64,000 nucleotides of DNA, taken from assembly GCA_902560445.1 (NCBI GenBank), contig CACELO010000002.1, positions 66,468 through 130,467 on the forward strand, read 5' to 3'. The DNA comes from an uncultured Candidatus Poseidoniales archaeon. Its GTDB lineage: Archaea > Thermoplasmatota > Poseidoniia > Poseidoniales > Thalassarchaeaceae. A program made the translations under genes and the position numbers. Every line of letters starts with the position of its first letter. Positions within the stretch are counted from its first letter, which is position 1. Below the pieces are notes generated by a model. The model was not told the origin of the DNA. It did no database searches and saw nothing but the letters and a program-made list of their open reading frames with translations. Positions 21,834 through 54,776 of the stretch are shown here, piece by piece.

Positions 21834-22721
21834 TCAATTTCGAGTCCAAGATGGAATGAATACATCTCTCCAATTCGGAGTTGCAAGATATTCTTCCTCG
21901 GTAAAGAATGACCTTGCATAAATCGAAATAAAGTCGATAATTAGAACAACAATGTAGATAATAATCAGGTATGCAAATACCTTGTCATATTGTAAAAATC
22001 TAAGATACAGATCGATGTAATATCCAATTCCTCCTGCACCGACAATGCCGATTACAGTACCAGAACGGAAATTATATTCAAACATGAATATCGAGTGAGA
22101 AATTAGATCATTTGCGGCTTCAGGAATAACTACGTTAACTGCTACTTCCCAACGACTCAAGCCTATTGCATTCGCCGCATCCAAAGGAGTTTTTGTCAGA
22201 CCCTCAATTGATTCATACTGTAATTTTCCAAGATATCCCACTGTGTAAATTGTCATTGCCAGAACGCCAGCTAATGGACCTAAGCCGACTAGAATAACCA
22301 AGAAAATAGCCCAAATCAATGCTGGAAGACTCCTACATGCTGAGATAAGAAAGCGGGTAGGGTAAGATATCCATCGCGGGCTTAAATTTCTTGAAGCCAT
22401 GATTGACAAAGGTAATGTTACAACCATACCAAATACAGTTGCAACAAACGCAATCTTTAGCGTCTCAATAACTCCCTTCCAAGCGGTTGAGCAAGTGAAA
22501 TCGAAAATTGGTTGGGCAGTACAAACAGGATATGTTTGAGGCTCTAGAACGCTCATATCTGGTGGCCAAAGAGACTGAAAGAAGAATCTGACAAGATTAT
22601 CTGGGCCACCTGCTAATCTACCCCAGTCGCCAACCATTCCGTTTAGAATTACAATTGCAAGCAAAAGGAGAATCCATAGCACCAGAGCCATCTTTTCGCC
22701 ATCTACTGCTATCTTCTTCAT
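21834..22721 (-). CDS. ABC importer permease, PhnE family
   Basis: 295 aa, 6 TM. It has the binding-protein-dependent transport motif region 'IEGLTKTPLDAANAIGLSRWEVAVNVVIPEA' and a 4-nt overlap with the ATPase gene. Confidence 0.8.
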   Translation of the reverse strand: MKKIAVDGEKMALVLWILLLLAIVILNGMVGDWGRLAGGPDNLVRFFFQSLWPPDMSVLEPQTYPVCTAQPIFDFTCSTAWKGVIETLKIAFVATVFGMVVTLPLSIMASRNLSPRWISYPTRFLISACRSLPALIWAIFLVILVGLGPLAGVLAMTIYTVGYLGKLQYESIEGLTKTPLDAANAIGLSRWEVAVNVVIPEAANDLISHSIFMFEYNFRSGTVIGIVGAGGIGYYIDLYLRFLQYDKVFAYLIIIYIVVLIIDFISIYARSFFTEEEYLATPNWRDVFIPSWTRN

Positions 22722-23428
22722 GAATTCAACACCACAGCTTTTGGTTTGGTAATGAATGGATTCACTCTTCCATCATCAATAACTAGGAGGCGATTTGCCA
22801 TTGACTTGGCTCTAGAAATATCATGCTCGACAACGATTAATGCTGAATTATTATCTTTCACGTAGCTTGTCACGCTTTCCAAAACCATAGCCAATGTTTC
22901 TTCGTCTAATTCACTCAAAAATTCATCTGCTAGAATTAATCTTGGTCGCTGAGCCAATGTTCTGGCCGTTGCGACTCTTCTCTGTTGGCCACCGGACAAC
23001 CTCCTAATTGGTTCTCTTGACTTTTCCTTAAGCCCCATTTGTTGAATTGCATTGGTAACTCGTTCCTTTCTTTCCTTCCTATCATTAGTTCCAGCTCGAG
23101 CACCCAACATTACATTGTGCCTAACACTTGCATGACGAACTAAACCCAATTTTTGTGGAATATACCCTAGTGCGCCACGGAGAGGTTTCGACGGAATTTC
23201 TGCACCACACACTGTGATCGAACCGGAAATTGGACGTATTAGTCCCGCAATTGTACCAAGTAAAGTTGACTTCCCGATACCAGAAGGGCCCGCTATGGCC
23301 ACTATTTCACCAGGGAATATTTCGAGATTGGGAATACTGACTAAGGGTGATTCAGTTTCATATCCGATTACTATATCTTCGAGGGAGACAATCGGATTTT
23401 CTGAACCCATACCCTCGGACAACTCCAA
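22718..23428 (-). CDS. ABC importer ATP-binding protein, PhnC family
   Basis: Walker A 'GPSGIGKST', signature 'LSGGQQRRVATART', Walker B 'ILADEFLSELD'. Confidence 0.85.
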   Translation of the reverse strand: MELSEGMGSENPIVSLEDIVIGYETESPLVSIPNLEIFPGEIVAIAGPSGIGKSTLLGTIAGLIRPISGSITVCGAEIPSKPLRGALGYIPQKLGLVRHASVRHNVMLGARAGTNDRKERKERVTNAIQQMGLKEKSREPIRRLSGGQQRRVATARTLAQRPRLILADEFLSELDEETLAMVLESVTSYVKDNNSALIVVEHDISRAKSMANRLLVIDDGRVNPFITKPKAVVLNS

Positions 23429-25611: not shown

Positions 25612-25908
25612 TGATCAAAACCTCTGTCTACCCGACTCTTGCTCAGGATGCTGATTTTTCAATGTTAGTCCTGAAGGAAATAACATAATTTTCAGTTTAA
25701 TCCTGGTGTTGACAGGGGAACCTGTGATGTGTACAGATGCTCCTATGTGACGCTGTTAGAGTCCCCCGTGCCAACGGGTATTGCCAATGCTATTGGCTAA
25801 GGTTGTTGACAGGGGGCCTATTGCGTTCGAATACGAAATTCGAATGTAGGTGTCAGGCGCTGATACGCCCCCTGCCAACTGTTTTGTCTTATCGACTGGT
25901 TACGTACT

Positions 25909-27144
25909 TCATTGGAGAGTTCCAATGTCTTCGGCTGTGATGCCAAATGCATCCCAGACTGGCTGTAGATAGGAGCGGATATCCGCTTCGTAATCTGCTG
26001 TTGCATCTCCATCATTCTTCAGATCGAAGATTTCGAGAATCTTGTCATTGTAGTAATTAGCATACCACCCAAATGCCTCGCACTCCTCCTCTGACATACC
26101 CTCATGCTGAGCGTGTGTCACTGAATTATAGCATCCTGTGAATTCCTCTCCACTCGGATCGTTTGGAGAAGTGTAGTTCTCCAGATACATGTATGCCTCG
26201 CAGGATGCCTGTGAGCTATCCGATGAGACCGTGTGAGATACCATGTTGTAGCAGATCGAAGTGTACTCAGCGACATATGCCTCGATTACCCTGTAGAAGG
26301 CGTGACCCTCTGCCTGGTGCTTGTCGTAGTCTGCAGTATCTCCAGCAGCTAGGTCGTCCGTCATCTTTGATGCGTACCTCACAGAAGCCTGTGAGTAGAC
26401 GATTACAATATTCTTCAGAACCTCGTCGCGTGCGTCGACTACTCCTTGCATATCTTCATTCTGAAGTGCAGTCAAGCCAGCGTTCATTGCGGCTAGAGTA
26501 GCGATGTTTGTAGCATCACCAGTCCCAAAGTTGCCCCCTCTCTTGGCAGCGGTTGCATATGGCCCACATCCATCGTAATCATGGTTGGAATCGTCAGGAC
26601 CATGGTAGAAAGCCCATCCTTCGTCCCAAGCGTGTTGAGCGTCATCGGCCCCCCAGTTTCCTGCTTCCGCCTTGATGATTGCAGCGTTGAGTTCATGGAT
26701 TGCATAAGCAGTCATCACACCATTCTGGATTCCCTTTTCGACTGCTTGATCTCTGACTGTGTCAGATTCTCCCTCGAAAGGACCTGTGCCATCAATAGCC
26801 GCAGATACGAAGTCATTCCATGAGCCGTCTGCATCATAGTATGCGTCGTAGGCGTGGTTCTTGCCGGAAGCATCTGCGAAGCCCATGAGGGTCCTGTAGG
26901 AACCGTCGGACTTCTCCGCGTGCTTTCCATCATCATAGATATCCTTCACACCGTCCCAATCGTATGCACCAGAGAGGTCCTTAATATCGCAGACATCACC
27001 CATTAACATTCGGTGATTATCAACGTTGGAAGCATACGTGTATCCTCCATCTGCGTCATCAAGATCTACATCATCTCCTGCACAACCGGCAATCGCACTG
27101 CCGATTAATACTAAAGTCATCATTAAAGTCATTGTTCTATTCAT
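25909..27144 (-). CDS. acidic lipoprotein of unknown function (mostly helical, Cys-pair modules near the C-terminus)
   Basis: Signal/lipobox 'LIGSAIAGCAGDD'. 411 aa. Two operator-like palindromes lie directly 5' of the gene. Confidence 0.7.
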   Translation of the reverse strand: MNRTMTLMMTLVLIGSAIAGCAGDDVDLDDADGGYTYASNVDNHRMLMGDVCDIKDLSGAYDWDGVKDIYDDGKHAEKSDGSYRTLMGFADASGKNHAYDAYYDADGSWNDFVSAAIDGTGPFEGESDTVRDQAVEKGIQNGVMTAYAIHELNAAIIKAEAGNWGADDAQHAWDEGWAFYHGPDDSNHDYDGCGPYATAAKRGGNFGTGDATNIATLAAMNAGLTALQNEDMQGVVDARDEVLKNIVIVYSQASVRYASKMTDDLAAGDTADYDKHQAEGHAFYRVIEAYVAEYTSICYNMVSHTVSSDSSQASCEAYMYLENYTSPNDPSGEEFTGCYNSVTHAQHEGMSEEECEAFGWYANYYNDKILEIFDLKNDGDATADYEADIRSYLQPVWDAFGITAEDIGTLQ

Positions 27145-27146
27145 AG

Positions 27147-27162
27147 TTTAGGTCTCCCTAAA
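27147..27162. promoter_or_regulatory. 16-bp palindrome TTTAGGTCTCCCTAAA (copy 2 of 4); candidate operator
   Basis: Begins 2 nt 5' of the ATG (27144) of the 411-aa lipoprotein gene. Confidence 0.55.
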
Positions 27163-27190
27163 CCGGCCGGATAGCGAATCGTATATGAAA

Positions 27191-27206
27191 TTTAGGGCGC
27201 CCTAAA
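27191..27206. promoter_or_regulatory. 16-bp perfect palindrome TTTAGGGCGCCCTAAA (copy 3 of 4); candidate operator
   Basis: Lies in the divergent intergenic region 27145-27299 and abuts the A/T-rich 'GTATATGAAA' (27181-27190). Confidence 0.55.
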
Positions 27207-27299
27207 CTCTTGAATCGTGCGTGGAAAATTGTCATATAACTGATGAGCAGTCAATTGAATTGGAGACGAGGTTTTTTTACTCATTTCTATTCGTAAATA

Positions 27300-27905
27300 T
27301 TGGTTTTAGTTACAAGGAGAGGATTAGTCTTGAGGAATTTGGGGCATAGATTGGGGGCTTCTGGTACCAAAATGGAAAATACCATTGACGGGCTTATGAA
27401 TTCATTAGAACAGGTAAATAATAGAAAATTTAAGTATTGGGAATTTGATATTAGAGAATCTTTGGATGGAATAATTTTTGTCTTTCATGATGATCAAATA
27501 CTTGTAGATGGAGAATTAATCGAAACCGCCAAATTGAATTTCTCTGAAATAATGAAAGCGGGTGAGGATTTGGGGGTAAAGATACCTACATTTTCAGAAG
27601 TTGTTGAAATATTGGGTGACCGGAAAGAAGATGTCATGGTTGAAGTGAAAGAATTGAGAACTGATGCCGCTAGAAGAACCGTAATCACTGCGATTTCTAG
27701 TAAACCAAATTGGAAACTGATGGCTACTCCAACTAGATTCTTGGAATCTTTTCCTAGTGAATCCAGGGAGTATTGGGAGCGATTTACTCGAGATTTGGAC
27801 GTAGAATTCGTTAGAGTTGGCCGCCATAAATTGGACCTTTTCAGCGCTTCTAAATCCTATTTTAGGTGGAAATTTGCTCGATTTAAATGGTTTTTCGGGA
27901 TTTAA
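27300..27905 (+). CDS. glycerophosphodiester phosphodiesterase (GDPD)-like protein
   Basis: 'LGHRLGASGTKMENTIDG...YWEFDIRESLDGIIFVFHDD' matches the GDPD N-terminal HR..EN...E.D...DG..V..HD pattern. It is short (201 aa). Confidence 0.6.
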   Translation: MVLVTRRGLVLRNLGHRLGASGTKMENTIDGLMNSLEQVNNRKFKYWEFDIRESLDGIIFVFHDDQILVDGELIETAKLNFSEIMKAGEDLGVKIPTFSEVVEILGDRKEDVMVEVKELRTDAARRTVITAISSKPNWKLMATPTRFLESFPSESREYWERFTRDLDVEFVRVGRHKLDLFSASKSYFRWKFARFKWFFGI

Positions 27906-27968
27906 TAATGATGACTATTTTGAATTAATTTTTCCTACAATTGATTATGAACCCCATTACTCACCCTA

Positions 27969-28403
27969 ATGTTGAAGAAAATGGTCAGTACTGATGAGTT
28001 AATTGTGGCGCTAAATAATGCTCTCGCTTGGGAATTAAGGGCTATTGCAATGTATGCTCACTATTCCGCATACGTTTCAGGGATTCATAGATTACAACTT
28101 TCGGTATTCTTCAATAATGAAGTAACAGAATCAATTGCGCATGCTTCAACCGTAAGATCCGCTATAGTGAAATTACACGGTAAGGCCACTACGGAGAGGG
28201 CAGAAGACCCTATTTTACACTCAATGGACTTCCGAGATATGTTGGAAGAGGCACACAAAACTGAGTTGAAAGCTAGCGAGACATATGGAGAAATTTTACC
28301 AATGGTTGAGCAAATTGGGGATAGCGAACTTTTTGATGCCCTGGAAGTTATTTACTTTGATGAACTGAGATCTGTAGAAGAATTGAGAATGATGCTTGGT
28401 TGA
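27969..28403 (+). CDS. ferritin-like four-helix-bundle protein (bacterioferritin/Dps-like superfamily)
   Basis: 144 aa. 'ALNNALAWELRAIAMYAHYS', 'EVTESIAHASTVRSAIVKLHG', 'LEEAHKTELKA' and 'FDELRSVEE' resemble the E / E..H / E / E..H di-iron pattern. The spacing of the first E..H is one residue off. Confidence 0.55.
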   Translation: MLKKMVSTDELIVALNNALAWELRAIAMYAHYSAYVSGIHRLQLSVFFNNEVTESIAHASTVRSAIVKLHGKATTERAEDPILHSMDFRDMLEEAHKTELKASETYGEILPMVEQIGDSELFDALEVIYFDELRSVEELRMMLG

Positions 28404-28429
28404 GATTTAAACATACTATTTACCGTTAG

Positions 28430-28445
28430 TTTAGGGTGCCCTAAA
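28430..28445. promoter_or_regulatory. 16-bp palindrome TTTAGGGTGCCCTAAA (copy 4 of 4); candidate operator
   Basis: 31 nt 5' of the ATG at 28476. TTTAAA (28406-28411) lies upstream. Confidence 0.55.
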
Positions 28446-28475
28446 CATTATCAAACAAACCGATTTCGGAGATGT

Positions 28476-29546
28476 ATGGAAAAAACTAGTTGGGCTGGTT
28501 GGGCCAAAGCTAACAAAGCACTTTTGCTCGCTGGATTAGTGCTATCTGCGACCGTATTGTATCTCATTTTCGACATTAATTACGAACAATGTGATGATCA
28601 AGATAACTGTATTACAATCGCTTTTGAGGTACAAGATGACTATTTGTATTTTGGAAAAGAGAACCCTCAGCACTTGGCAGACAAAATGAGTGCTCTGACT
28701 GGTATGGATGTTGAAATAATGCCTGTATCGAATTCCGGCGCGATAATCGAGGCTATCAATAATGGCAATGCGGATATTGGATTTGTAGATGGAGCGGCCG
28801 CTTGGCTTGCATGGGAAGTTTACGATTTGGACGTGCTAGCGGCAGAGTGGAAATTTGATCAAAGGACGTACTATAATGCGGCAGCCTGGGTGAAAAAGGA
28901 CTCTGAAATTGCAGACGCGTATCTAGATGATGATCCAGATACAGACCCATTTGCTTTAATGAATGGAAAAACGTCTTGCCATACAGGATGGCTGAAAAGT
29001 GCTGGGATGTTGATTCCAATGGGTTACTTGATTGGAAATGGGTATGCCGAGGTGCGTGGAGATCCTGAAGAAATTACTTCACTACGAGATACAGTGACGC
29101 ATTTCTTCAACGAAGATTCAAGCATACCTGACGGAGGTACTCAATATTCCGGATATAAGGGGGCATTGAAGTGTATGATGACTGATCGCGGAGACGTTGC
29201 TTTAGTCAAGGATACAGCATATATGCTCTACTGTGACGAAAATGAGGACGGAATTGCAGATGGTCCTGATTGGTGTTTGGATAGAGATGAGCTCGTTATG
29301 CTCGAGTCATTTGGTCGAGCACCGAGTCACCCCGCTTTGTATAATCCCTCAGCTATGAATAACGAAACGGTCGAACTAATTCAAAATGCATTGGTGGATA
29401 TGAATAATGATGAAGAAGGTACAAAGATACTCTCCGATGTCTTAAACACTGAAGGAATGGTTGTTACGAATGCTACTGCTCACCTAGGCACATATGGTGC
29501 GGCTGTAGAGAACGTCCCTGGAATACAAGCATTTTTTGAGGATTGA
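28476..29546 (+). CDS. monolobal transferrin-like substrate-binding protein (PhnD superfamily) with N-terminal membrane anchor/signal
   Basis: Motifs 'NADIGFVDGAAAW', 'RTYYNAAAWVKKDS', 'GKTSCHTGWLKSAGMLIPMG', 'YSGYKGALKCMMTDRGDVALVKD' and 'APSHPAL' align with transferrin N-lobe ligand and anion-site motifs (recalled from the human serotransferrin sequence). Confidence 0.8.
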   Translation: MEKTSWAGWAKANKALLLAGLVLSATVLYLIFDINYEQCDDQDNCITIAFEVQDDYLYFGKENPQHLADKMSALTGMDVEIMPVSNSGAIIEAINNGNADIGFVDGAAAWLAWEVYDLDVLAAEWKFDQRTYYNAAAWVKKDSEIADAYLDDDPDTDPFALMNGKTSCHTGWLKSAGMLIPMGYLIGNGYAEVRGDPEEITSLRDTVTHFFNEDSSIPDGGTQYSGYKGALKCMMTDRGDVALVKDTAYMLYCDENEDGIADGPDWCLDRDELVMLESFGRAPSHPALYNPSAMNNETVELIQNALVDMNNDEEGTKILSDVLNTEGMVVTNATAHLGTYGAAVENVPGIQAFFED

Positions 29547-29592: not shown

Positions 29593-30798
29593 ATGAGAGT
29601 GACCATCACTATCCTAATTTTATTGATAATATCTCTATTTTCTGGATGTTTTTCAGACGATGGAGATGATTTTGATTGGACTGATCCCCAAACAACAGAG
29701 TGCAATTTAGGCAATAACCTAACTTGTACTAATTTGTTTCCGGGAGCTGGTACTCCTCATCACTCAGAAGTAAATCCTCAAACTAATGAATTATGGATAA
29801 TTTATCTCAGTGGAATGGTAAAAATTTGGCAAGATGATGAACTAATACAAGCTGGTGACTTAAGTGAAATTGTAAATAGATGCCATACAGAACAAGGATT
29901 GCTTGGATTTGCATTCGATGCCAACTATAATTCTTCCAAACAACTATTGTTATCATATGTGGAAAAAGGCAGCTGCGAAGGGGCGAATAATGCAGACCTC
30001 GTTCTTGCTTCAGTTGTTGTTACTGATGATGATATGATAAATTTGGACTCGTTAATCGTCTTGAAAACCGTAGAACAACCATACAGGAATCATAACGGGG
30101 GGCATTTACATGGTTTGGGTAATGGAGAATACCTCTGGGGAATTGGAGACGGAGGTGGAGCTAACGACCCAGAAAAGAATGGGCAGAATTCTGAAAATTT
30201 ATTGGGCACTATTGTTTACTTCCAATACTCAAATGGCGATGTTAATCCGATAATGGATTCAGAAAATGGAAACCCCTACATCTTGCACTATGGTTTGCGA
30301 AATCCATGGAAATTCGACGTGGGCCCTAATGAGGAACTATGGATTGCTGATGTCGGACAAAATTGTTGGGAAGAAATTAATTTGGTAAATTTGGTAAACA
30401 AATCAAACCTTGGGTGGTCAGAAAAAGAAGGATTCAGTGATTTTTCCGAAGGTGGAAGTTGTGAAGGAGGAGTTCTATCTGAAAATAATGAATTTACAGA
30501 CCCTGTCTTTGTCTATGGTCACAATAACGGAAATTGTTCCATAACCGGTGGCTTTTGGACTGAGAATACAATAATCTCAGACCAAGGTGGTTATCTGTTT
30601 GGAGACTTTTGTTCTGGTTCGCTATGGATTCTTTCCAATGGTGTAAATCACACATGGAAAGAGACCTATCTTGGTAACGTGGGGGGACTAATTGTAGGGT
30701 TTGGAGAAGGGGCTAATGGTGAGCTTCTGGTCTTTTTCTGGACTGGAGAAATCATACAAATCACTCAATCCGCTGCCGCCGATAGCAATATCGTGTGA
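29593..30798 (+). CDS. beta-propeller lipoprotein, PQQ-dependent glucose/sorbosone dehydrogenase-like
   Basis: Lipobox 'ISLFSGCFSDD'. 'EQGLLGFAFD', 'YRNHNGGHL', 'GDGGGANDP', 'YGLRNPWKFD' and 'ADVGQNCWEEIN' match the GSDH-family pattern. Confidence 0.7.
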   Translation: MRVTITILILLIISLFSGCFSDDGDDFDWTDPQTTECNLGNNLTCTNLFPGAGTPHHSEVNPQTNELWIIYLSGMVKIWQDDELIQAGDLSEIVNRCHTEQGLLGFAFDANYNSSKQLLLSYVEKGSCEGANNADLVLASVVVTDDDMINLDSLIVLKTVEQPYRNHNGGHLHGLGNGEYLWGIGDGGGANDPEKNGQNSENLLGTIVYFQYSNGDVNPIMDSENGNPYILHYGLRNPWKFDVGPNEELWIADVGQNCWEEINLVNLVNKSNLGWSEKEGFSDFSEGGSCEGGVLSENNEFTDPVFVYGHNNGNCSITGGFWTENTIISDQGGYLFGDFCSGSLWILSNGVNHTWKETYLGNVGGLIVGFGEGANGELLVFFWTGEIIQITQSAAADSNIV

Positions 30799-30817
30799 TA
30801 CCTGCTCCAGTATTGTG

Positions 30818-32815
30818 ATGAGACGCCAAGGCGCGCTTAGAATCGTGGTCATGATTACGATTATTGGAATGATGATTTCTTCGTTACAAATCGGCTACCA
30901 ACAAGGTGGTCTTGATGAATCTCAAGACAGAAGAGAACAGCTCGGCCCTGATGAGCCTACACTGGAGGAGCGATGTAGCGTCCTTACTTTCGAGGATATG
31001 TTTGAGTATACTAAAGCAGTATTCAATTTCACTATTGCCAATGATTGGAGTTCTGCCGAAATTGAAGCAGTTGCTTGGGTAAATGGGACTTTGGCAGATG
31101 ATGTAAGACAGAGTTTAGATGAATATATTGCACAAATCTACCCAAGTGGCGATGATGGCTGGATTTCTACCGATGAAAGGGAGGGAGTCAGAGCTATTGC
31201 TTCGGAGTGTGTTCAATACACGTTTACTAGAATGGGTATGCGTGATGGAAGTCCTCACAGAGGAGGTGACGGTACCGATTGGAAAAACACATCTTGGAAC
31301 GAAGACGAGGTCCTAGTAGAAGAATGGAATCTAGTCCCTCCTCGACATTCGGAATCGAGAGAATGTTCAGGGATTGGTAGTGGTAGCGATTGCTACGAGG
31401 TTCCGGTATATCCGGATAGTGAACGAGATTGCGACACCGAGGTAGATTCATCGAGCAGTCAAGATGAATGTAGAATGAAGTTATGGCTAAATGCTACCAT
31501 GATAATCTCCGAGATAAATGATCCAAGTGACTTCACAATAGCCTATAATGCCTCAAACATGAGTGGGGCTGAATATCATATCAAATTCCCCGTAACCGAA
31601 GGACTCCGACTAGATATGTGGGAGGAATGTGAAGGACGAGACGTGCAAGTGGATATGGGTGATTTTGCTGGTGTGGCTCCTCTGAGAGGTAGTTGTATTG
31701 GTGACGGTTCTAGCAGCTATGAACTTAATGAAAACGAAGATGGAAGTCTAACTTACTCCTTCTATCCCAACATGCCTCAGTGGCCTGTAGGAGAGGACCT
31801 GTTTGCCGACTTTACAACTGCACCAATCCCAGTGGACGACCCTCCTGTCTGGACTGATAGCGCACCGACAGATGGAGCCTGGTTCCCTCGTGCGAGTGGG
31901 GGGGCACAGATTATCGCGGACTGGAATGAAGTTCAAAATTGGTTCAATGATGAGGCTGGAGTATCGAACCTTGAGATGAATTGTAGAGGTGATGCAGGAT
32001 TAGTAATTACCTACTCACAACGAGAGTTGTCGATGGATGTACCAAGAGGTCAGGCAGGAGAGGTCACCTGTGAAGCAATCGACAGTTCTGGCCAATCCTC
32101 AGGAAATAGAACTTGGAATGTAGGAGTTCCATTCCAAATTTCAACTACAGATACTGAACTATCAGACCCACATCCGATTACTCTCTCTCCAACCGCTGGC
32201 TGGCCTGATCTATCTGTAGAACTCGGATTTTCCTCAAGCTTCGAAGAGGCAGGAACATATTACGGCCCATATTCAATCCAAGGCTCGGAAATAACTCAAG
32301 ATATTGCTGTGGTGGGACTTGTCCCCGGTCCAGTATATGTCGCTGTAATAGTAACCGGAGAAGGAGTTTATAGTTTGCAAGCGACTTATGATTTGGGGAT
32401 TCAAAAGGCCAGCAGTCCTCCAATAATGACAGTCACCACCGAAGGGTGGGATGGTAATTCATGGTCAATGAGTGGTCAATTCTCCGACCCCGATGGTGAA
32501 ACGATTAGTTTCAGCCTGATGATTGATGGGGCCTCAGTTGGAAGTATTACGGTCAGTGGCAATATGTGGTCTACACCTGCGATTGATTTCTCAGTATGGA
32601 CAGAAGGTTCACATATTGTTGAGGTTCAAGCCTGTGATGAGTCTGGCCTATGTTCAAGTCAGCAACGTAGCGTTGACAATACTCATTTGTTCGTTGATCC
32701 TGAACCTGAACCTGAACCACCGAAGGATAACTCTTCGGTTCTTCCCTCAATGGGATTGGCCGGTCTGATTCTTGCGGCATCTGCCGCACTCATATACTCG
32801 GGCCGACGCGACTGA
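30818..32815 (+). CDS. secreted acidic surface protein with Ig-like C-terminal domain and PGF-CTERM-like tail
   Basis: ORF track 30701..32815. I start at ATG 30818 (MRRQGALRIVVMITIIGMMISSLQ signal/anchor), which removes the overlap with the upstream gene. The C-terminus is 'LPSMGLAGLILAASAALIYSGRRD'. Confidence 0.7.
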   Translation: MRRQGALRIVVMITIIGMMISSLQIGYQQGGLDESQDRREQLGPDEPTLEERCSVLTFEDMFEYTKAVFNFTIANDWSSAEIEAVAWVNGTLADDVRQSLDEYIAQIYPSGDDGWISTDEREGVRAIASECVQYTFTRMGMRDGSPHRGGDGTDWKNTSWNEDEVLVEEWNLVPPRHSESRECSGIGSGSDCYEVPVYPDSERDCDTEVDSSSSQDECRMKLWLNATMIISEINDPSDFTIAYNASNMSGAEYHIKFPVTEGLRLDMWEECEGRDVQVDMGDFAGVAPLRGSCIGDGSSSYELNENEDGSLTYSFYPNMPQWPVGEDLFADFTTAPIPVDDPPVWTDSAPTDGAWFPRASGGAQIIADWNEVQNWFNDEAGVSNLEMNCRGDAGLVITYSQRELSMDVPRGQAGEVTCEAIDSSGQSSGNRTWNVGVPFQISTTDTELSDPHPITLSPTAGWPDLSVELGFSSSFEEAGTYYGPYSIQGSEITQDIAVVGLVPGPVYVAVIVTGEGVYSLQATYDLGIQKASSPPIMTVTTEGWDGNSWSMSGQFSDPDGETISFSLMIDGASVGSITVSGNMWSTPAIDFSVWTEGSHIVEVQACDESGLCSSQQRSVDNTHLFVDPEPEPEPPKDNSSVLPSMGLAGLILAASAALIYSGRRD

Positions 32816-32819
32816 GTTC

Positions 32820-33569
32820 GTGAGCTTCTCAGGCACCGTGGACAGAGAGTCGCATGAAGGGGGCCTCCTCGTTTCCTTTGAGGGACGTGCGCCGAGACTT
32901 GGGGCTACTTTACGAATAATCGGTGGAAAGCCGATTGGTAAGGTTAATTCAGTAATTGGAGCGATTGATGGGGCGTTTGTTCACATTCATCCAATTACAG
33001 ATCAAATAGAAGTCACAAGCACAATCGGCTCTCCGGTTGAAATCGCTCCAAGAGAGAAAAAAGAGTATCGTGGTCGTGGAAGAGATAGTTACTCGAAAAG
33101 AAATTCTCGCCGTGATAGGCGACATGGTGGGAATAATGACAGAAAAGGCGGAGATTGGACTTGTCCAAAGTGTAACAATTCTAATTTTGCCTTTCGAAAG
33201 AAGTGTAATCGCTGTGAAGCAGATAGGCCTCGAGATGGAGGAAGGAAATTCGAAAGAAAATTTGAACGAGGTGGTAACAATAAGCAAAAAGGAGGTGATT
33301 GGACTTGCCCTAAGTGCAACAACTCTAACTTCGCCTTCAGAGATAAATGCAATCGCTGTGATGCTAGTCGACCTAGCTCAGGTGGCAAGGCCCCCTCGAG
33401 AAGTAGATCCAACCAAAACCGAGGTCCTAGGCCTCAACGAGGCCCATCTGGACGAGGGCGAGGGCGAGCCCCGGGGAGCGCAAGTAAACCACGAAGATCT
33501 GGATTCAGAGGAACTGGCCGAGGTGGTCCTAGAGGTAATCGACCAGGAAGAGGTAGCGGTAGGCGCTGA
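32820..33569 (+). CDS. gar1: H/ACA RNP protein Gar1 fused to two RanBP2-type zinc fingers and an Arg/Gly-rich (RGG) tail
   Basis: The Gar1-like core 'GLLVSFEGRAPRLGATLRIIGGKPIGKVNSVIGAIDGAFVHIHP' has the same pattern as archaeal Gar1. Two copies of 'W-T-C-P-K-C-N-N-S-N-F-A-F-R-x-K-C-N-R-C' fit W-x-C-x2-C-x3-N-x6-C-x2-C exactly. The start is placed at GTG 32820, just after the upstream stop. Confidence 0.7.
   Translation: MSFSGTVDRESHEGGLLVSFEGRAPRLGATLRIIGGKPIGKVNSVIGAIDGAFVHIHPITDQIEVTSTIGSPVEIAPREKKEYRGRGRDSYSKRNSRRDRRHGGNNDRKGGDWTCPKCNNSNFAFRKKCNRCEADRPRDGGRKFERKFERGGNNKQKGGDWTCPKCNNSNFAFRDKCNRCDASRPSSGGKAPSRSRSNQNRGPRPQRGPSGRGRGRAPGSASKPRRSGFRGTGRGGPRGNRPGRGSGRR
33156..33359 (+). repeat. 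tandem duplication encoding the two RanBP2-type zinc fingers
   Basis: 33156-33215 and 33300-33359 encode near-identical 20-aa Cys4 units with flanking GGxxK(G)GDW context. Confidence 0.8.
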
Positions 33570-33616: not shown

Positions 33617-34645
33617 ATGGCGAACAAGGCGGATATGCTCTGGGAAGATGTTCTCGATCTTGAAGAGGCTGGTGAGAGGCTGGAAGCCCTCGATCTATGT
33701 CGCCAAATCACCCGCATGGAGCCAGACCATGCCGCCGCTTGGAAAATGACCGCAAGGATGACTCTTCCAGCAGCAAGGAGAGGTGTGCAAGATATGCCTA
33801 CTCTACGACAAGCGGCTAGTGCTTATTCCGCATTACAAAATGTCGTGAGATTGGAACCAGAGGATACAGAATCATGGGCATTGGGAGGAATTCTTCTCGT
33901 TGACCACCTGGGTATGCTAGAAGAAGCACTTGAGTGGTGGCAGCAAAGAAGGCAAGTCAACCCCGAAGATGTGATGCCACTAATCGAACAAATTGCCATT
34001 CTTGTACGGCTTGGGATGTATTCTGAAGCTAGCGAGTTGTTGGAAATCATGTTCGACTCGGAAATGGAACAACCAGACCGTAAGCAACTAATCAATATGG
34101 ATCGAGTTAGACAGATGGTTGACAAGGCGGCCAAAATGGAGAAAGAGGAAATATTCAGACCACAAAATCCCAAACATCCTCGATGGGAGATAATCGGTCG
34201 AATGAAAACTCGTAAACCGCTCTCTGAAACCTTCTTCCTGTTCACTTTTGTTGCTCCAATTGTATTCATTATTGGCAGTATAGCTATGAGTGCACTTGGA
34301 GGTAGTCAATATGGCTTCATTTTAGTATTTTTGATTATTCTAGCGCTATTTATGGTGGTAAGTCGAGCCGGTGCTGGATTATTACAAAAACTCAATCGGC
34401 ACGCACTTGACTTAGAAAGAGCGATTGATATTGAAGCTACTTCAGGAAAGGTGTGTGTACCTGCCGAAATTCGCGGTAGTAAACTCTACAATTATATGAT
34501 TGGAAAACGAACTGAAGCCTTCCAAGACCGCCATAGTAAAATTATTGATTCAGACGAAATTATTGATAAAAAGTGGAAACCAGAAATACTCGGTTTTTCA
34601 AACATGGAAAGTAGGTGGGGAGAGGCTGAGGAATCCGAGGATTAA
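33617..34645 (+). CDS. TPR-like N-terminal domain protein with two central TM segments; unknown function
   Basis: 342-aa ORF with a helical-repeat N-terminus and the hydrophobic stretch 'FFLFTFVAPIVFIIGSIAMSALGGSQYGFILVFLIILALFMVV'. Confidence 0.55.
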   Translation: MANKADMLWEDVLDLEEAGERLEALDLCRQITRMEPDHAAAWKMTARMTLPAARRGVQDMPTLRQAASAYSALQNVVRLEPEDTESWALGGILLVDHLGMLEEALEWWQQRRQVNPEDVMPLIEQIAILVRLGMYSEASELLEIMFDSEMEQPDRKQLINMDRVRQMVDKAAKMEKEEIFRPQNPKHPRWEIIGRMKTRKPLSETFFLFTFVAPIVFIIGSIAMSALGGSQYGFILVFLIILALFMVVSRAGAGLLQKLNRHALDLERAIDIEATSGKVCVPAEIRGSKLYNYMIGKRTEAFQDRHSKIIDSDEIIDKKWKPEILGFSNMESRWGEAEESED

Positions 34646-35990: not shown

Positions 35991-38900
35991 TCAATTGCCG
36001 TCCCCTTGGCCTTGCTGGGCGTAATATGCTGCGTAATATTGCTCGGCATATTGCCTCGCGGTAGCTTCGTCATAGCCTTGTCCGACCATCTGTTGTACGT
36101 ATGCTTCGACGGGGTCCATTTGCTCCACACCACCAAACTGTTCAACAGTGTCTTGGCCATCATCCGATTTACCTCTCGATCTAACAACGACTAGAGTTAC
36201 ACCAACAATTGCTAGAACCAAAATAACTCCGATAGCAGCGAACATGATGACGTCGGTGCTACCACTTTCTGACTCACAACCATCGCTTGATGGATTCAGA
36301 GCACAAGGGTCGCTTGGTCGAGGAAGTAAGTCAATTGTAAACTGGTCATCCAAGGTGTACCTGCTTCCATCTCCCTCAACAATTCTCCAGTATATTGTGA
36401 CCTGTTTCCCAGTAGTCTCCAAGTAAAGGTCTGCAATGTTGAGAGTGATTGTGAAGGAGTCACCATCTCCAAGTGGGGCTGGACCTGTAGAATTGTATTT
36501 TCCTAGTGCCTTCTGAGTAGCCTTTGGAGAGGGTGTCAAATCCAAATGGGCAGAATCTAAAGCCACCTCAATTATGACACCGTTTTCGGCACCTGATTCC
36601 ACAATACCATTGATTGTGACCAAATCTTGGCTCTGAGAATCAGTAGAACGTGGTGAAGTAATATCCACAACTGGCGGTTCGTCTCCGAAGTCCTCTCCAA
36701 CTACAATGAAGTAGATTCGTGCCTTTTCTGATTGCTTTCCAGCACGATCGTATACAATCAATTCTAGCCTAATCTGGTTCTCAAGCGTTCCATCGCTAGT
36801 CATGTTACGGAATACATAATTCCACGTGTCACCACCTGCTGCGTTAGGTACCTGGAAGGTATGGCCTTCTAGAGTTGGACTCGAGGAATCTACAGGATAA
36901 TCAAAGAATACACGATATTCAAACATCTCAATTCCTCTCTCACCCTCAGGTGCGTCGTCGTCAGAGCTTGCTGAAGAATCGAAGGAAAGACTGATATCAC
37001 CACTGTCGGTCAATCTAACTCGATATATTGGCCAATCTATGCCCCCAACGGTTTTGCTCCCTTCAAGACTTACGTACTCATCTGTAACGCTGTCCTCAAT
37101 CATTTGTAGATCTGCATTAGGTCGGAATTCATCCGCTAATGTATCATCTGTTACTAGATTGATGTAAGTGATTCTTGTGTGACCCTCATCATCATGTAAA
37201 TACAGAGTCAGATGCCATTCTGCACCGATTCTACATCCAGTTGTGGAACTCGAATCGCCAACGCAGAAGCTACCAAGAGCTGGTATGCTCGCACTGTTTT
37301 GACGAATGTGGCTAGTTTCACCGAAATCGATAATTTCTCCTTCCCACCCTGTAACCGACTCATTCATGTCTATAGATTGTAATGTCCAATCGGCAATAAT
37401 ACCGTCAGCCAAGGATGAATCCGACGTCAAGAAAGAGAAATCCAGTTCAGAGTTCGACTTGATGTACATGGTTGAGTAGGCGCCTGTTACCGTGTCAATC
37501 GAAGGGGCTTCTCCATTCACAGTCAAGTCAAATCCATCACCTGCAATTCCGAAGTTACTTGGGTATGGAGTTACTTGATAGCCAAGCATATTGGATAACA
37601 GTGGCATAGATGTTCCATTAAATGGTTGAGAGAAGCTTGGATTCTCAACGTCAAGGGTAGTAACAATCATTCCACCTGCTCCGCGATTACATATCGAAAG
37701 TAACGACTGTGAGTCAAACGATTCACTTCGCATTAGAGTATGGAAGGTTCCGGTTGGATCACTAATTCGACCACCACATACTTGTGGAATTTGGTCGAAT
37801 TGTACCTGTGCTGTATCGAGACCTGCTAATGCGACGTAGGACCCACCGTGAACGCCGGCAAAGGCTGCAGTATCGACGTTATTCATCAGTGGGTGGTATG
37901 CATCGACAATAACTAGGTCATCATTTGTGACTGTGTTATTCCATTGGTTTCGCATAGCGATATCCATTCCGAAAGGTAGCCTATTTGGCTGATATTCGTT
38001 ACGATATGGCCCAAGGTGAATCTGAACAGTTCCACCGTTAACCATGTATGCCTCAAGGACTTCTGTAACCGAGAGACCGTCTGATTCCCTAGTAGATGCT
38101 AGTGTCTCGTAATATTGTCCATACTCGACATTGTAATCGGTCTGCCATGGTAGCAAGATCTTGTCATAATGGGACATCCAGTTCTCAGTTGCGTATCGAT
38201 CCCAATCATTTACTGACAACTGAGTATATGTCATTCCCATCGACTCTAGGTCTTGCTTAACTCTCTGCAAACGATTCTGATCTGTAGGGTTGGATAGAAT
38301 TGCGACATCGACAGTTTCAAAGAATTCTATTTCAAAGAATCGATCGTTTCCTGATGGTTCTCCGTCTTCAGTCAATATAGCATAGAAGCTGATGTTGTAT
38401 TGATGACCATCATACCAGCCGTTGTAAGGTGCGGTCCAATTAGCGAAGTCTCGAGCATGAGCTTCAAGATCAAACGGCCCATTATCTGCCGGCTGTTCGT
38501 AAACAGTTTGGCCTGTTGTCATGTCTACAATCTTCATATTCACTTCATACTCGCCTGCGATTACACCATTCAGAAGAGGAACAGTGAATGAGTGCTGAGA
38601 GACTGAATCATATGTGTAGACGCACTTGTATGTGATATCAGAGACACAATCAAGTACATTTGGTTGCATCAAAGTTATGTCTGCGCTTGCGATACTGAAG
38701 ATAATTTGGGTGTGATTATTTGCGGTGGTAATCTCGGTTTTATTATACCATGATGTATCTTCAATTGTACTATTGAATAGAGTTGTTGCATCAATTCGGT
38801 AAATTCCCGATTTGAAGTCGTGCGTTGCCACCGTAACGTCTTCGCGCTCCGATGCATCAAGTCCATTGATGTCGTTGATGTAAGTTCCATCATCCTCGAA

Positions 38901-41900
38901 AGTGAATTCATCGATACGAATATTATCGACTGCAAATCCGGCAAGACCAGCATTTCCATTGACCCCATCATCATTTGATTGGAATCTCCATGTTAAAGTG
39001 ACTTCCGAGCCAGAAAGATCTGTGCACTCCGTCCTCCACTCGAAGGTATCGTTAGAGGTCTGGTTTAGCAGAGTTATGTGAGTCATATCAATGATTACTG
39101 ATTTAACTAGACTCTCGGAATCAAACCAAACTACAGACTCGTATCGGTCGGAATGGTCTCCCATGTATTCGACCTCATCATATCGACCATTGTTGTCGAA
39201 ATCTTCACAGGCACCTAGACCACTACCATCTTGGAAAGGTCTCAGTCCATTTTCGTTAAGATCAGTCCAGCTTCCCCAAACGGTTCCACTGAAGATTTCT
39301 CCACCCTTAGACCACTCAATTTCTAGGCCAGCAGCATCACGTATTGCCAGAATGTTCCCTTGCTGATCTGAGAGGAAATCACCTTCCGCAAAGTAGTCAA
39401 ATGTCAGGTAAGTGAAGTCGGTTCCACCGGAAGCAACCGGGAAAGGATCTAGGGTTAAAGTCTCATCCCAGTTGTCACCATAACCTGTATCTGGGTCTCC
39501 TAACCAATATGCAAAGGAATTGAACACGCCTCTGCTTTGTGGTAGCATTGGATGGTCACCATTGGTGTCATCTAATCGACTTCCATTCATATTTCCATCA
39601 TCTTCCCAAATTGGTTCGAATCCTGAGAAATCCTCTATTGCGATTAGATCAGGCAGAGCGTTCTTGACTTTAGTTTCCAATTGGAAGTCTGTTAGTGTGT
39701 TTCCAAAGTTTTGAACTCGAATTTCTATGTCGCGATCGCCAGATGCATATCTCAATCCATTCTCAAGACTAATCCATGGCTCCTCTGCAACACCTGGGTC
39801 GAATAGGTTCTTGACAGTAATCTGGAATTTGACTTCGTCATTTGTTGCATCAGCATTATCGAATCCACTAGGATTGGTTAATTCTGTCTTGATATAATAT
39901 GTTCGATTATCGACGAAATCAGCATTAAGAGTGACCTCCTCGGTAGCACCAGCTGCAAAATCTGTGAATGACAGAGTTTGACTTACGACTTCTTCGGTAC
40001 CGAATATAATGTCGGTTTTGCGAATAGAGATGTTGTCAAAGGCATACCCATCTAATCCAGTGTCCTGAGAGGAACCGTCTGGGCCAACACTTCCCATCAA
40101 TCCGCTGCGGAAGCGGAAGCGGATATCAACAACCTCCCCGGCGTAGGGCGTAAGATCGATTGCATCATCACCGGAAAAACTCGTCCAAGTGGTAACCGTA
40201 TTAGTGTTGAAGTTTCCATTGTAGGTGTTGTATTCGGGATCTTGGCCGAATCCATAGAGACGCAGATATCTTTCATTATCCCAGCCACCAGTAAAGAATA
40301 CCTGTTCCCATCCATTTCCATCGCTCCAAACCTCAATACCACAGGAGTCCTCATACAACCATCGCTCTACTACGGCGTATTGCTCAGCGAGATACAACTC
40401 ATAGAATGCGGCGCTGCAGAAAAGATCCAAATCCAGATATGCTGCATCTGCACCTGTTAAGTCAACATTCTCGATTATGAACGCCTCGTCCATGTTGTTG
40501 TAGTAACCTGAATCGTTATCCTGGTTATTGTGATCCATTCCGGCCCACATATATGTAGTTGGGTTTCTGTCAGCTTCCCACCAGTCATCGGTGGCTGAAC
40601 CATTAGAATCTGTAGAGGCATTCCATTCCTCGTGCCATGAGGATGAACCTTCGCTATATTCTCCTGTGTAAGATTTTAGGGTAATTGCACAAGCAGGACA
40701 ATTGGTATTATCGATATTACCCTCAAAGTCGTTGGAATAAACAAGAGTATCAATTCCGTCAAGAACTTCCTTGACTTCTAAATCGACATCTATTGAGCCA
40801 GAAATAGGGTTAAGACCTGTGTTTTTTACTGTTAAGTTAACAAAACGATTGCCCTCACCAATCATGGCTGCTCCAGTCGCCGGATCGTAGGCCGCCGGTG
40901 CAATACTTACCTCGGTAATTCCAACATCCTCATTATCGAGACTGAGGACTGAAAGGAAATCACCTGCTCCAGCCCAACCTTGAGTATCAAGCCACATAGC
41001 GCTGTTTGCGAATCTGTATGATCTGTCTCGCTGTCCGATGGCTATCTCGTATGCACTATTTTCTCCGCCAGCTAACTGACCCGGGACTGCCATAGTTGGT
41101 CGCCGACCAACGTCAAAGGAAAGCGATGAAAGATATCCATTTCCGTTTGGATTACCAAGAATGATTTCTACAGTATTGATTTCCCTCAGATTATCCACAA
41201 GCAAGTATGTCTGGTTCTGCGCAGTGGAGTCCTGCAAGCGAGTTAGAGTAACCTCCGTTGGAACAAAGAAATCCATGTGTCCATCTCGATTTACATCAGC
41301 AATGGTAAGCGAGGCACCTAGGTAATCGCCTAGGGGCACGTAATTTTGAGTATTCCATGTCGAACCAGATCGAGTTGCATAGGATATATATCCTGTAATT
41401 CCATCAACAGCGGCGATTAAGTCAACCTCACCGTCATCATTGGTATCGGAAATATCGATTCCGTACAAAGGATAGTTATGTTCTGCGTCAAGCTTGAAAT
41501 TGTGTACACCATTTGCTGTTGCATCCAATGGGTTTGGATAAGCTCCTAGAGTGCAGTCGTATTCAAGCACAGTCATATTGTCATAGTGACCATTCGAGTA
41601 TCCAACACCAGTGTTGTACGGAGGTGAACGCAGCAACCAAATATCCAGATCTTCACAATCTCCAACACCGCCACCAGGAAGGCCACCACCGCCAAGGACA
41701 TCTTCTCCCCAATGTCCTAGCATTAGGTTCGTGTGTAATCCATTAGTTAGTGGCACTGGAATGGTTTGTTGAGCCGTTAATTGAGTTGGGTCAGGACCCT
41801 TGTATATGTTGATGTAATTATTTGTGAAAGTAGGGTCAACCACACTCATCACAATATCTGCATCTCCGTCGCCATCAATATCCTCTACATCCATATCCTG

Positions 41901-54732: not shown

Positions 54733-54776
54733 GCGATTGTCTGATGAAGGGCACGCTTGCCCTCATAATGATAGTC

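Follow-up and report, generated by a model that had tools for sequence, protein, structure and literature searches.

A Gar1-like protein of marine Poseidoniales archaea with two RanBP2-type zinc fingers and an RG-rich tail

In eukaryotes, Gar1 is flanked on either side by GAR domains and lacks zinc fingers. Both RanBP2-type RNA-binding fingers and long RGG domains are regarded as innovations of eukaryotes, belonging to the nucleolus, splicing and condensates. For the archaeal protein we take the reference to be Pyrococcus furiosus PF1791 (PDB 2HVY/2EY4; Pfam PF04410, COG3277). Reviews describe archaeal Gar1 as devoid of the GAR domains found in eukaryotes (PMC1865073), and the canonical relatives recovered here, 75-97 aa long and without a zinc finger or R/G-rich domain, agree with the expectation that archaeal Gar1 is normally short and GAR-free. 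The RGG domains of eukaryotic Gar1 aid catalysis once substrate is bound and delay the release of product (PMC8096250), effects that are consistent with Gar1 RGG domains contacting substrate RNA. We found no prior description of a Gar1-zinc finger architecture in the literature searched.

The protein described here comes from a 64-kb window, the whole stretch of DNA analysed, of a member of the Poseidoniales, a globally abundant marine archaeal order. The host had been taken for an archaeon, and it is one: it belongs to Marine Group II, with Ca. Thalassarchaeum MGIIb-O1 as nearest relative. The gene that had been predicted at 32820-33569, with a barrel, two fingers and a tail, is borne out there, all three parts lying in a single uninterrupted reading frame. 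The protein has 249 aa, well beyond the canonical archaeal length, and fingers, linkers and tail together make up 169 of them. The features are as follows.

30701..32815, + strand: upstream neighbour, 704 aa (weak Pfam match to Big_9; hydrophobic N- and C-terminal segments)
32820..33569, + strand: complete gene, Gar1-(RanBP2 ZnF)x2-RG tail, 249 aa (ORF list and translation)
32820, + strand: start codon GTG; 33567-33569, + strand: stop codon TGA
32820..33059, + strand: Gar1 six-stranded beta-barrel, aa 1-80 (AF2, Foldseek, hhalign)
33060..33146, + strand: basic disordered linker 1, aa 81-109, net charge +8 (pLDDT <50; composition)
33147..33236, + strand: RanBP2-type zinc finger 1, aa 110-139, core W113...C132 at 33156-33215
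33237..33290, + strand: basic disordered linker 2, aa 140-157 (pLDDT <50)
33291..33380, + strand: RanBP2-type zinc finger 2, aa 158-187, core W161...C180 at 33300-33359
33381..33566, + strand: disordered Arg/Gly/Pro/Ser-rich tail, aa 188-249, 62 aa (pLDDT <50; composition)
33617..34645, + strand: downstream neighbour, TPR protein with predicted membrane segments (Pfam TPR_14)

The start is GTG 32820, not the in-frame TTG 32772 further upstream: the homologues all begin MSF[SE]G.V..SHEGGLL at this point and close relatives have ATG there. A TATA-like CATATAC lies 23-28 nt before it, within the conserved C-terminal codons of the upstream gene (...LIYSGRRD), and its conservation is uninformative for that reason.

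The N-terminal Gar1 barrel

The original prediction saw a Gar1-like barrel at 32820-33056 and proposed Pfam scans for both Gar1 and zf-RanBP as a check. The scans split: the fingers, at 68.8 bits, clear their cut-off of 27, while the barrel, as a single sequence, reaches 13.5 bits against the Pfam Gar1 gathering score of 29.3 (16.7 as an isolated domain) and 19.7 against 107 for NCBIfam Gar1 NF009632, below threshold each time. It is nevertheless Gar1 by profile, hhalign and Foldseek. Pfam Gar1 is the best match in 12 of 15 family members, and the top five PDB matches to the barrel family profile are all Gar1 chains. AF2 models residues 1-80 at pLDDT ~90 with strands at 4-10, 16-21, 30-33, 38-46, 53-59 and 72-75, and Foldseek places only Gar1 at ranks 1-14 of the PDB, with RimM and aIF5B appearing from rank 15 and Naf1 from rank 17. 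The best match is P. furiosus Gar1 (2hvy_B; TM 0.84, rmsd 2.3 Å, 77 columns), compared with TM 0.62-0.68 for yeast, human and insect Gar1 chains, so that the barrel is nearer the archaeal than the eukaryotic form.

An exhaustive HMMER profile search of 1.84 billion representatives reached proteins of 75-97 aa that both Pfam (26-41 bits) and NCBIfam recognize as Gar1, among them the named Gar1 proteins Methanothermobacter MTH_886 and Promethearchaeota GAR1; this canonical set was chosen from matches to the family profile, though validated independently. When aligned with canonical short archaeal Gar1 by hhalign, the family profile matches over 78 columns from residue 1 (probability 99.1%, E 6e-19). 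The two share a barrel that begins at residue 1 and a G-x-V...G-x-L...P-x-L...IG-x-V...G pattern, and canonical archaeal Gar1 likewise ends in a short basic tail (...RKGRRRG, ...KRRRRK); the barrel described here differs from it in a family-specific SHEGGLL motif and in falling below the curated thresholds. Profile and fold both identify the N-terminal domain as a Gar1 barrel of archaeal type. JGI automated annotation calls these proteins Gar1, and NCBI calls them 'zinc finger protein' or 'hypothetical'. With these NCBI labels, and with a barrel too divergent to reach the cut-offs of Pfam and NCBIfam, genomes of Marine Group II may seem to lack Gar1.

A barrel of this fold could also belong to a Gar1 paralogue outside the H/ACA RNP, with a canonical Gar1 encoded elsewhere in the genome to serve the RNP. 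The protein would then act on its own, as a highly basic RNA binder or RNA chaperone or in ribosome assembly, and its barrel would not be meant for Cbf5. We consider this unlikely, although the barrel is divergent enough to fall under both Pfam and NCBIfam thresholds, residues S11, H12, E13, G14, G15 and H55 are invariant in the family and not conserved in canonical Gar1, and the neighbourhood contains no RNA-modification gene. Against these points, the domain aligns with canonical Gar1 end to end, starting at residue 1, and its fold comes nearer to archaeal Gar1 than to Naf1, RimM or aIF5B. At least 179 species genomes carry the family, and no genome recurs among the best 80 loci, the pattern expected of the universal orthologue. 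The named canonical Gar1 proteins that emerged from the exhaustive search are those of Methanothermobacter and Promethearchaeota, most of the remaining clusters consulted being without an organism name, and the JGI name for the present proteins also speaks for Gar1 itself.

RNA-binding features of the fingers and the tail

The basic linker that had been predicted ahead of the fingers is present (aa 81-109, net charge +8), and the two predicted W-x-C-x2-C-x3-N-x6-C-x2-C fingers were recovered exactly, at 33156-33215 and 33300-33359, by motif scan. No further finger motif occurs in the six frames of the 64-kb window, and no other finger-bearing gene in the window or in 736 kb of flanking Poseidoniales DNA. 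Pfam Zn_ribbon_RanBP (PF00641) matches two stretches at E 2.3e-19, with a score that far above the cut-off excluding a chance match, and AF2 models both fingers at pLDDT 81-90. Finger 1, supported by PF00641, the motif scan and the model, aligns to the fingers of FUS, ZRANB2, RBM5 and RBM10; finger 2, also found by PF00641 and motif scan, has the FUS ZnF as its best PDB match (6g99_B, E 2.6e-7).

The RanBP2-type class also includes protein-binding subclasses, such as ubiquitin-binding NZF fingers (Npl4, TRABID), defined by a Thr-Phe dipeptide after the second Cys, and Ran-binding fingers (Nup153). The fingers might recruit a partner protein, and not RNA, to the H/ACA RNP, and Nup153 and TRABID/ZRANB1 are indeed among the weaker PDB profile matches (E 1e-3 to 6e-3). 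The strongest matches, however, are to RNA-binding fingers, FUS at 2.6e-7 and ZRANB2 at 8e-5, with RBM10 and RBM5 also represented. The sequence C-N-N-S-N lacks the Thr-Phe after the second Cys, and the linkers around the fingers are strongly basic. The stacking aromatic, like the Arg and the Asn that contact RNA, hardly varies either, and on all this evidence we regard a protein-binding role as very unlikely.

These contacts can be followed residue by residue. In ZRANB2, W79, R82 and N86 contact RNA (PMC11789483), and the aromatic position is a criterion for putative RNA-binding fingers (PMC6384913). Their equivalents here are F123/F171, R126/R174 and N130/N178. Among 384 fingers from 257 family members the contact positions are 95-100% conserved: the aromatic in 100%, Arg in 100% of type A or Lys in 99% of type B, and Asn in 95-100%. 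A second finger subtype, ending in C-x4-C, accounts for 158 of the 384. The equivalent of ZRANB2 R81 is Phe, not Arg, and is Trp in FUS, which makes the exact RNA specificity of the fingers uncertain. As judged from their sequence, the fingers are RanBP2-type and bear the residue signature of the ssRNA (GGU/GGN)-binding subclass, nearest to FUS and ZRANB2.

The likeness to the FUS/EWS/TAF15 family that had been pointed out is real for a zinc finger set in basic or RG-rich disorder and does not extend to the SYGQ domain, the RRM or family membership. The finger follows GDWxCPxCxNxNFx[FW]RxxCNxC as in FUS and ZRANB2, with 46% identity to the FUS ZnF in the Foldseek alignment; as in FET proteins and ZRANB2 the fingers sit in Arg/Gly-rich disorder, and as in ZRANB2 they are in tandem. 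Unlike those proteins, this one has no RRM (none by Pfam), no SYGQ prion-like domain and no SR domain, and here, in an archaeon, the fingers belong to a subunit of an RNA-modification RNP. The protein shares a module with the FET family without belonging to it.

The cores of the two fingers are identical at 19 of 20 amino acids, whereas the 90-nt segments that encode them (aa 110-139 vs 158-187) agree at 65 of 90 positions (72%). Near-identity in protein with many synonymous changes in DNA points to purifying selection on an old duplication. A recent tandem duplication was considered and rejected: Tandem Repeats Finder reports no 144-nt repeat, and the finger DNA is 72% identical. Linker 2 is where a precise 48-aa unit is inserted in close relatives, giving three fingers.

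The tail had been described as an RGG tail. The quoted residues are present and Arg/Gly-rich, but they are not RGG-rich: the tail has 17 R and 17 G (55% R+G), eight RG and one RGG, a net charge of +19 and a pI of 12. It is predicted to be disordered throughout (residues 188-249, AF2 pLDDT <50), and it is the sole R/G-rich stretch in the 64-kb window. Even relatives with diverged linkers retain the C-terminal motif ...PGSASKPRRSGFRGTGRGGPRGNRPGRGSGRR. GAR domains have been defined as ~50 aa or more of Gly/Arg with roughly 10 or more RGG (PMC9957100); the window tail falls short of this and relatives L062 (36 RGG) and L070 (20 RGG) attain it. The window protein's tail is thus RG-rich or tri-RG, not a classical RGG box. 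Eukaryotic Gar1/GAR1 (NOLA1) likewise joins a Gar1 core to a C-terminal Gly/Arg-rich disordered domain, and in Poseidoniales L062 and L066 this carries 27-37 RGG-type triplets, comparable with the long GAR domains of PMC9957100; the window protein departs from the eukaryotic form in that its tail is RG-rich with a single RGG.

Distribution and genomic setting

The homologue search returned 417 homologues or protein clusters at E<=1e-3, and relatives are encoded in 179 species-representative genomes. Locus counts refer to the best 80 of these 179 matching genomes. All 80 are Marine Group II/Poseidoniales, two of them in bins labelled bacterial; the gene occupies one shared syntenic position, and no genome is represented by two of these loci. 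Variants of the design thus extend through the order as a whole. The basic Arg/Gly-rich extension is always present in these loci. The fingers vary, from 0 to 4 in the examined genomes and to 5 in one metagenomic homologue, as do the RGG triplets, from none to 36 across the family. In 21 of the 80 loci no finger was detected (five of those 21 genes run off a contig end), so that the core function can do without them.

This recurrence also bears on whether assembly or gene calling could have joined a short gar1 to an unrelated zinc-finger gene, for which one might cite database entries P0051, P0073 and P0104, truncated or frameshifted in the finger region. The reading frame in the window is uninterrupted, the architecture recurs in hundreds of independent assemblies, SAGs and MAGs, and the finger codons are under purifying selection, so we attach practically no credence to such a joining. 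The original prediction had named orthologues split into separate genes as a sign of a fusion artefact; the same locus in all 80 of the best 80 of 179 speaks otherwise. With 417 protein clusters and those 80 loci at one syntenic position, a fusion or assembly artefact was rejected.

The 704-aa neighbour, likely surface-anchored on the basis of its sequence, lies directly 5' of gar1 in 76 of the 80 Poseidoniales loci. Its stop falls 4 nt before the gar1 start, and the spacing is tight in most loci. The gar1 gene may be expressed by co-transcription with it, or as a leaderless transcript. The TPR protein lies 3' of gar1 in 60 of the 80. The neighbours of gar1 (the likely surface protein, the TPR membrane protein and an SAH hydrolase) lend no functional support. 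Pfam finds no Cbf5, Nop10 or L7Ae gene among the 47 ORFs of the window, and no H/ACA guide RNA was found in its 64 kb, where Rfam gives only two tRNAs.

Proposed function and evolutionary meaning

Our preferred reading, which we think probably correct, is that the protein is the Gar1 subunit of the Marine Group II (Poseidoniales, Thalassarchaeaceae) H/ACA pseudouridylation RNP (Cbf5-Nop10-L7Ae-Gar1), with multivalent RNA-binding modules added. By analogy with the Pyrococcus structures, the barrel would dock on the Cbf5 catalytic domain and thumb loop. The C-terminal extension would serve as a multivalent, low-specificity RNA tether, in which the fingers might hold on to short single-stranded stretches rich in G, with the RG tail binding RNA electrostatically. 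Such a tether could concentrate substrate rRNA or pre-rRNA locally at the guide pocket, chaperone RNA folding, or both, and the variable finger copy number may tune avidity. The extension would in this respect resemble the GAR domains of Gar1 in eukaryotes, whose suggested role, an accessory contact to RNA (PMC8096250), may apply to it too.

The acquisition of these modules had been called convergent or ancestral. An acquisition ancestral to eukaryotes is unlikely, since the architecture was found only in Poseidoniales and the recovered Promethearchaeota (Asgard) Gar1 is plain, at 91 aa; convergence stands as the alternative to horizontal transfer of RGG-ZnF modules, and the two are directly testable against each other with these data. 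To our knowledge, archaeal cells of this kind have no nucleolus, no known comparable splicing and no described arginine-methylation system. It is tempting to speculate, although we hold it to be quite improbable, that Poseidoniales built a GAR/RGG and FUS-like finger module, either independently or by transfer from eukaryotic plankton, and that it drives a nucleolus-like condensate of H/ACA RNPs and nascent rRNA in a nucleus-free cell. If that were so, evolution would have tuned the module through the number of its fingers (0-5) and of its RGG triplets (0-36).

The architecture itself contradicts the textbook view that GAR-type and finger add-ons are eukaryote-specific (PMC1865073 for GAR). 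It also provides a natural experiment, in which one locus varies from 0 to 5 fingers and from 0 to 36 RGG triplets, through which the role of accessory RNA-binding modules in an H/ACA RNP may be read in a simple cell.

Identity of the N-terminal barrel

The gar1 reading frame lies on the plus strand from GTG 32820, four bases beyond the upstream gene's stop codon, to TGA 33567-33569, a single open frame of 249 codons. An in-frame TTG at 32772 would lengthen the protein by 16 codons, but we place the start at 32820 because all homologues show an M-S-F-[SE]-G-x-V-x-x-x-S-H-E-G-G-L-L N-terminus at this position, where close relatives have ATG instead of GTG.

Single-sequence evidence for a Gar1 identity is not convincing, with Pfam Gar1 scoring 13.5 bits (gathering score 29.3) and NCBIfam Gar1 19.7 bits (cut-off 107). 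The five best PDB matches of a barrel profile from 15 diverse homologues (A1) are all Gar1 chains (top 2hvy_B, E 0.0027), and Pfam Gar1 is the best match in 12 of the profile's 15 members. Run by HMMER against 1.84 billion representative proteins, A1 found 133 clusters at E<=1e-3, the strong matches being the fused Gar1-finger family itself and the weak ones (E 9e-8 to 1e-3) mostly proteins of 75-97 aa, nine of ten scanned carrying a Pfam Gar1 match of 26.6-41.4 bits. Named Gar1 proteins of Methanothermobacter (MTH_886) and Promethearchaeota are among the short matches, and NCBIfam Gar1 equivalog models are the best match for all five canonical proteins scanned, each below its cut-off. Aligned by hhalign to 13 canonical short archaeal proteins (A3), a set taken from the family profile's own hits and confirmed independently through Pfam, NCBIfam and the names of the sources, A1 gave a probability of 99.1% (E 6e-19) over 78 columns from residue 1.

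The AlphaFold2 model, built on 54 homologues, has a six-stranded barrel at residues 1-80 with pLDDT about 90. Foldseek ranks 1-14 in the PDB are all Gar1 chains, led by P. furiosus Gar1 (TM 0.84 normalised to target, rmsd 2.3 A, 77 columns), with yeast, human and insect chains at TM 0.62-0.68; RimM and aIF5B domains appear from rank 15 and Naf1 from rank 17. From the PDB profile matches, exhaustive search, hhalign and fold, we therefore conclude that the barrel is a divergent Gar1 of archaeal type by homology and fold, despite its sub-threshold scores. The original prediction of a Gar1-like barrel thus stands on profile, alignment and structure, although not by the Pfam and NCBIfam single-sequence thresholds.

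Two metagenomic proteins of 160-191 aa, P0221 and P0228, have a THEGGLL barrel related to Poseidoniales Gar1 and lack fingers, P0221 having a basic tail. They may be a sister lineage marking the phylogenetic boundary of the finger and tail feature.

Zinc fingers and basic tail

Two W-x-C-x2-C-x3-N-x6-C-x2-C motifs were predicted at 33156-33215 and 33300-33359, and their coordinates proved exact. Pfam Zn_ribbon_RanBP matches twice (E 2.3e-19, 68.8 bits; cut-off 27), and a six-frame scan of the 64-kb window found no third such motif and, gar1 apart, no further R/G-rich 40-mers. The closest PDB relatives of the two-finger segment are RNA-binding fingers, FUS being best (E 2.6e-7), then ZRANB2 finger 1 (8e-5), ZRANB2 finger 2, RBM10 and RBM5. 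That the window fingers bind protein instead is very unlikely in our view, the Nup153 and TRABID fingers, which bind protein, scoring lower than these. In the ZRANB2-RNA structure, the guanines of GGU stack on either side of W79, R81 and R82 recognise G1 and G2, and N86 makes contact with both G2 and U3 (PMC11789483).

Equivalents of ZRANB2 RNA-contacting residues in the window protein
W79: F123 (finger 1), F171 (finger 2); Phe also in ZRANB2 finger 1 and FUS
R81: F125 (finger 1), F173 (finger 2); Trp in FUS
R82: R126 (finger 1), R174 (finger 2)
N86: N130 (finger 1), N178 (finger 2)

The 257 unique family members yielded 384 fingers, in which the equivalents of D68, W69, N76, N78, W79, R82 and N86 are 95-100% conserved. 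Type A fingers, with a C-x2-C end, number 226 and include both window fingers; the other 158, type B, have a C-x4-C end and Lys at the R82-equivalent position. By sequence, the window fingers are PF00641 members with the RNA-binding signature.

The two finger cores share 19 of 20 residues, while only 65 of 90 nt agree between the stretches that code for aa 110-139 and 158-187, many identical residues using synonymously different codons, and Tandem Repeats Finder did not find a 144-nt repeat. Near-identical protein with diverged codons and no DNA repeat points to an old duplication maintained by purifying selection and so speaks for a function of both fingers.

Of the final 62 residues, 17 are Arg and 17 are Gly, and the net charge of this tail is +19 (entire protein: pI 11.4, net charge +36). 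The predicted RGG tail is thus Arg/Gly-rich, but since it has eight RG dipeptides and only one RGG, it is RG-rich and not a classical RGG box. By the long GAR criterion of PMC9957100 this tail falls outside the definition, whereas orthologues at loci such as L062, L066 and L070 fall within it: there a single finger precedes 20-36 RGG triplets, arranged in repeats of the GGNRGGDRGG type, which make up a true long GAR domain. In the AlphaFold2 model pLDDT is below 50 at residues 83-109, 140-157 and 188-249, so that the basic linkers and tail are predicted to be disordered.

The last ~36 residues, aa 214-249 (33459-33566; PGSASKPRRSGFRGTGRGGPRGNRPGRGSGRR), stay conserved even where the linkers of homologues differ, and other clades have their own conserved C-terminal motifs (...KFNSRR, ...PGHAHN... 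and ...NPF[KR][KR][KR]). Such conservation suggests short linear motifs, not mere composition.

One locus across the Poseidoniales

A protein search at E<=1e-3 found 417 homologues, all of them from marine metagenomes or MAGs under the labels Euryarchaeota or Poseidoniaceae. Many bear the JGI name 'nucleic-acid-binding Zn-ribbon protein/rRNA processing protein Gar1', and the Gar1 and finger halves had previously been noticed only by such automated annotation. Some database homologues (P0051, P0073, P0104) are truncated, have a frameshift among the fingers or are joined to the product of the upstream gene, probably through assembly or gene-calling errors in repeated, biased sequence.

With one genome taken per GTDB species, 179 encode a relative. 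The best 80 of these loci are all Marine Group II/Poseidoniales except two contigs in bacterial bins. These two, PBUF01000091.1 (L036) in a Gammaproteobacteria bacterium MAG and PARX01000028.1 (L046) in a Rhodobacteraceae bacterium MAG, carry the Poseidoniales gar1 locus with its syntenic neighbours and are probably mis-binned. The window barrel is 97-98% identical to those of MED-G37, UBA126 and Ca. Thalassarchaeum MGIIb-O1.

Genes in the window
20808-21824, plus strand: GpsA, a bacterial-type NAD-dependent glycerol-3-phosphate dehydrogenase in an archaeal genome (Pfam NAD_Gly3P_dh_N, NAD_Gly3P_dh_C, GPD_NAD_C_bact)
21834-23428: ABC transporter genes, adjoining the next cluster
23515-29546: two transferrin/phosphonate-binding-type substrate-binding proteins, a Fea1-like low-iron-inducible protein and a ferritin-like protein; by sequence, looks like iron acquisition/storage
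30701-32815, plus strand: upstream neighbour of gar1, 704 aa, hydrophobic ends, weak Big_9 domain, likely surface-anchored
33617-34645, plus strand: downstream neighbour, predicted TPR membrane protein
35991-42476, minus strand: giant ORF, 2161 aa, one FG-GAP repeat as sole Pfam match
54660-56918, plus strand: NFACT-family protein (NFACT_N, NFACT-R_1), homologue of ribosome-quality-control RqcH/Rqc2; no other gene noted besides gar1 has a clear link to RNA or ribosomes

The locus runs from the ~700-aa likely surface-anchored protein through gar1 to the TPR membrane protein, followed in the opposite orientation by SAH hydrolase and the giant FG-GAP protein. The upstream neighbour is kept in 76 and the downstream neighbour in 60 of the 80 loci, down to ~30% identity, which indicates one orthologous locus whose C-terminal extension was remodelled in place. 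A fusion artefact, which the original prediction named as refuting, is ruled out by this shared syntenic position and by the recurrence of the architecture across the order. The two neighbours have no obvious tie to RNA modification. The giant ORF adjoins SAH hydrolase in 53 of the 80 loci, and a GGAGG-like Shine-Dalgarno motif precedes gar1 in a zero-finger clade.

Among the same best 80 of 179 loci, 21 genes have no finger, 22 one, 23 two, 13 three and one four, counts that include 18 genes truncated at contig ends (five in the zero-finger set); one metagenomic family member has five. Zero-finger forms consist of the barrel and a basic R/G/K tail of 66-131 aa. Finger number and type track barrel phylogeny, zero-finger clades lying at two places in the tree. 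Finger copy number also varies among close relatives, since genomes with a near-identical barrel (L001, L002, L012) have one exact extra 48-aa finger-plus-linker unit, at the site that corresponds to 33237-33290, and hence three fingers against two in the window.

A candidate RNA-tethering subunit

The window protein thus joins a Gar1 barrel to RNA-type fingers under selection and to predicted disordered, basic linkers and tail, conserved order-wide. The statement that archaeal Gar1 normally lacks GAR domains is borne out by PMC1865073. FET proteins have an RRM and a SYGQ domain; the window protein lacks both and so is not a FET member. The fingers may have come by transfer from eukaryotes or independently.

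We favour, with reasonable though not high confidence, a Gar1 that acts in the H/ACA RNP with an RNA-tethering extension, and its sequence suggests that it works like Gar1. In 2EY4/2HVY, Gar1 makes no RNA contact and tunes substrate loading and release via the Cbf5 thumb loop (PMC1865073); the window barrel would bind Cbf5 likewise. The C-terminal extension would add multivalent, low-specificity RNA affinity, its fingers binding short G-rich single strands and its RG tail binding RNA electrostatically, and may keep substrate or pre-rRNA close to the RNP or act as a chaperone for it. By analogy, the yeast precedent fits RNA tethering, as the Gar1 RGG domains there promote catalysis once substrate is bound and make the exchange of product slower, read as substrate-RNA contact (PMC8096250). 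With finger number ranging from zero to five, an avidity module seems likelier than a fixed structural contact. Condensate formation is a speculative possibility.

The main rival, a Gar1-fold paralogue working outside the RNP, we consider improbable. Within the 64-kb window there is no second Gar1, nor are there Cbf5, Nop10, L7Ae or guide RNAs.

In the literature searchable here, no Gar1 with RanBP2 fingers is described from archaea or Marine Group II. The finding does not alone demonstrate a new mechanism; it is relevant to RNP evolution, to RNA recognition by RGG and zinc-finger modules and to the origin of nucleolus-like organisation.
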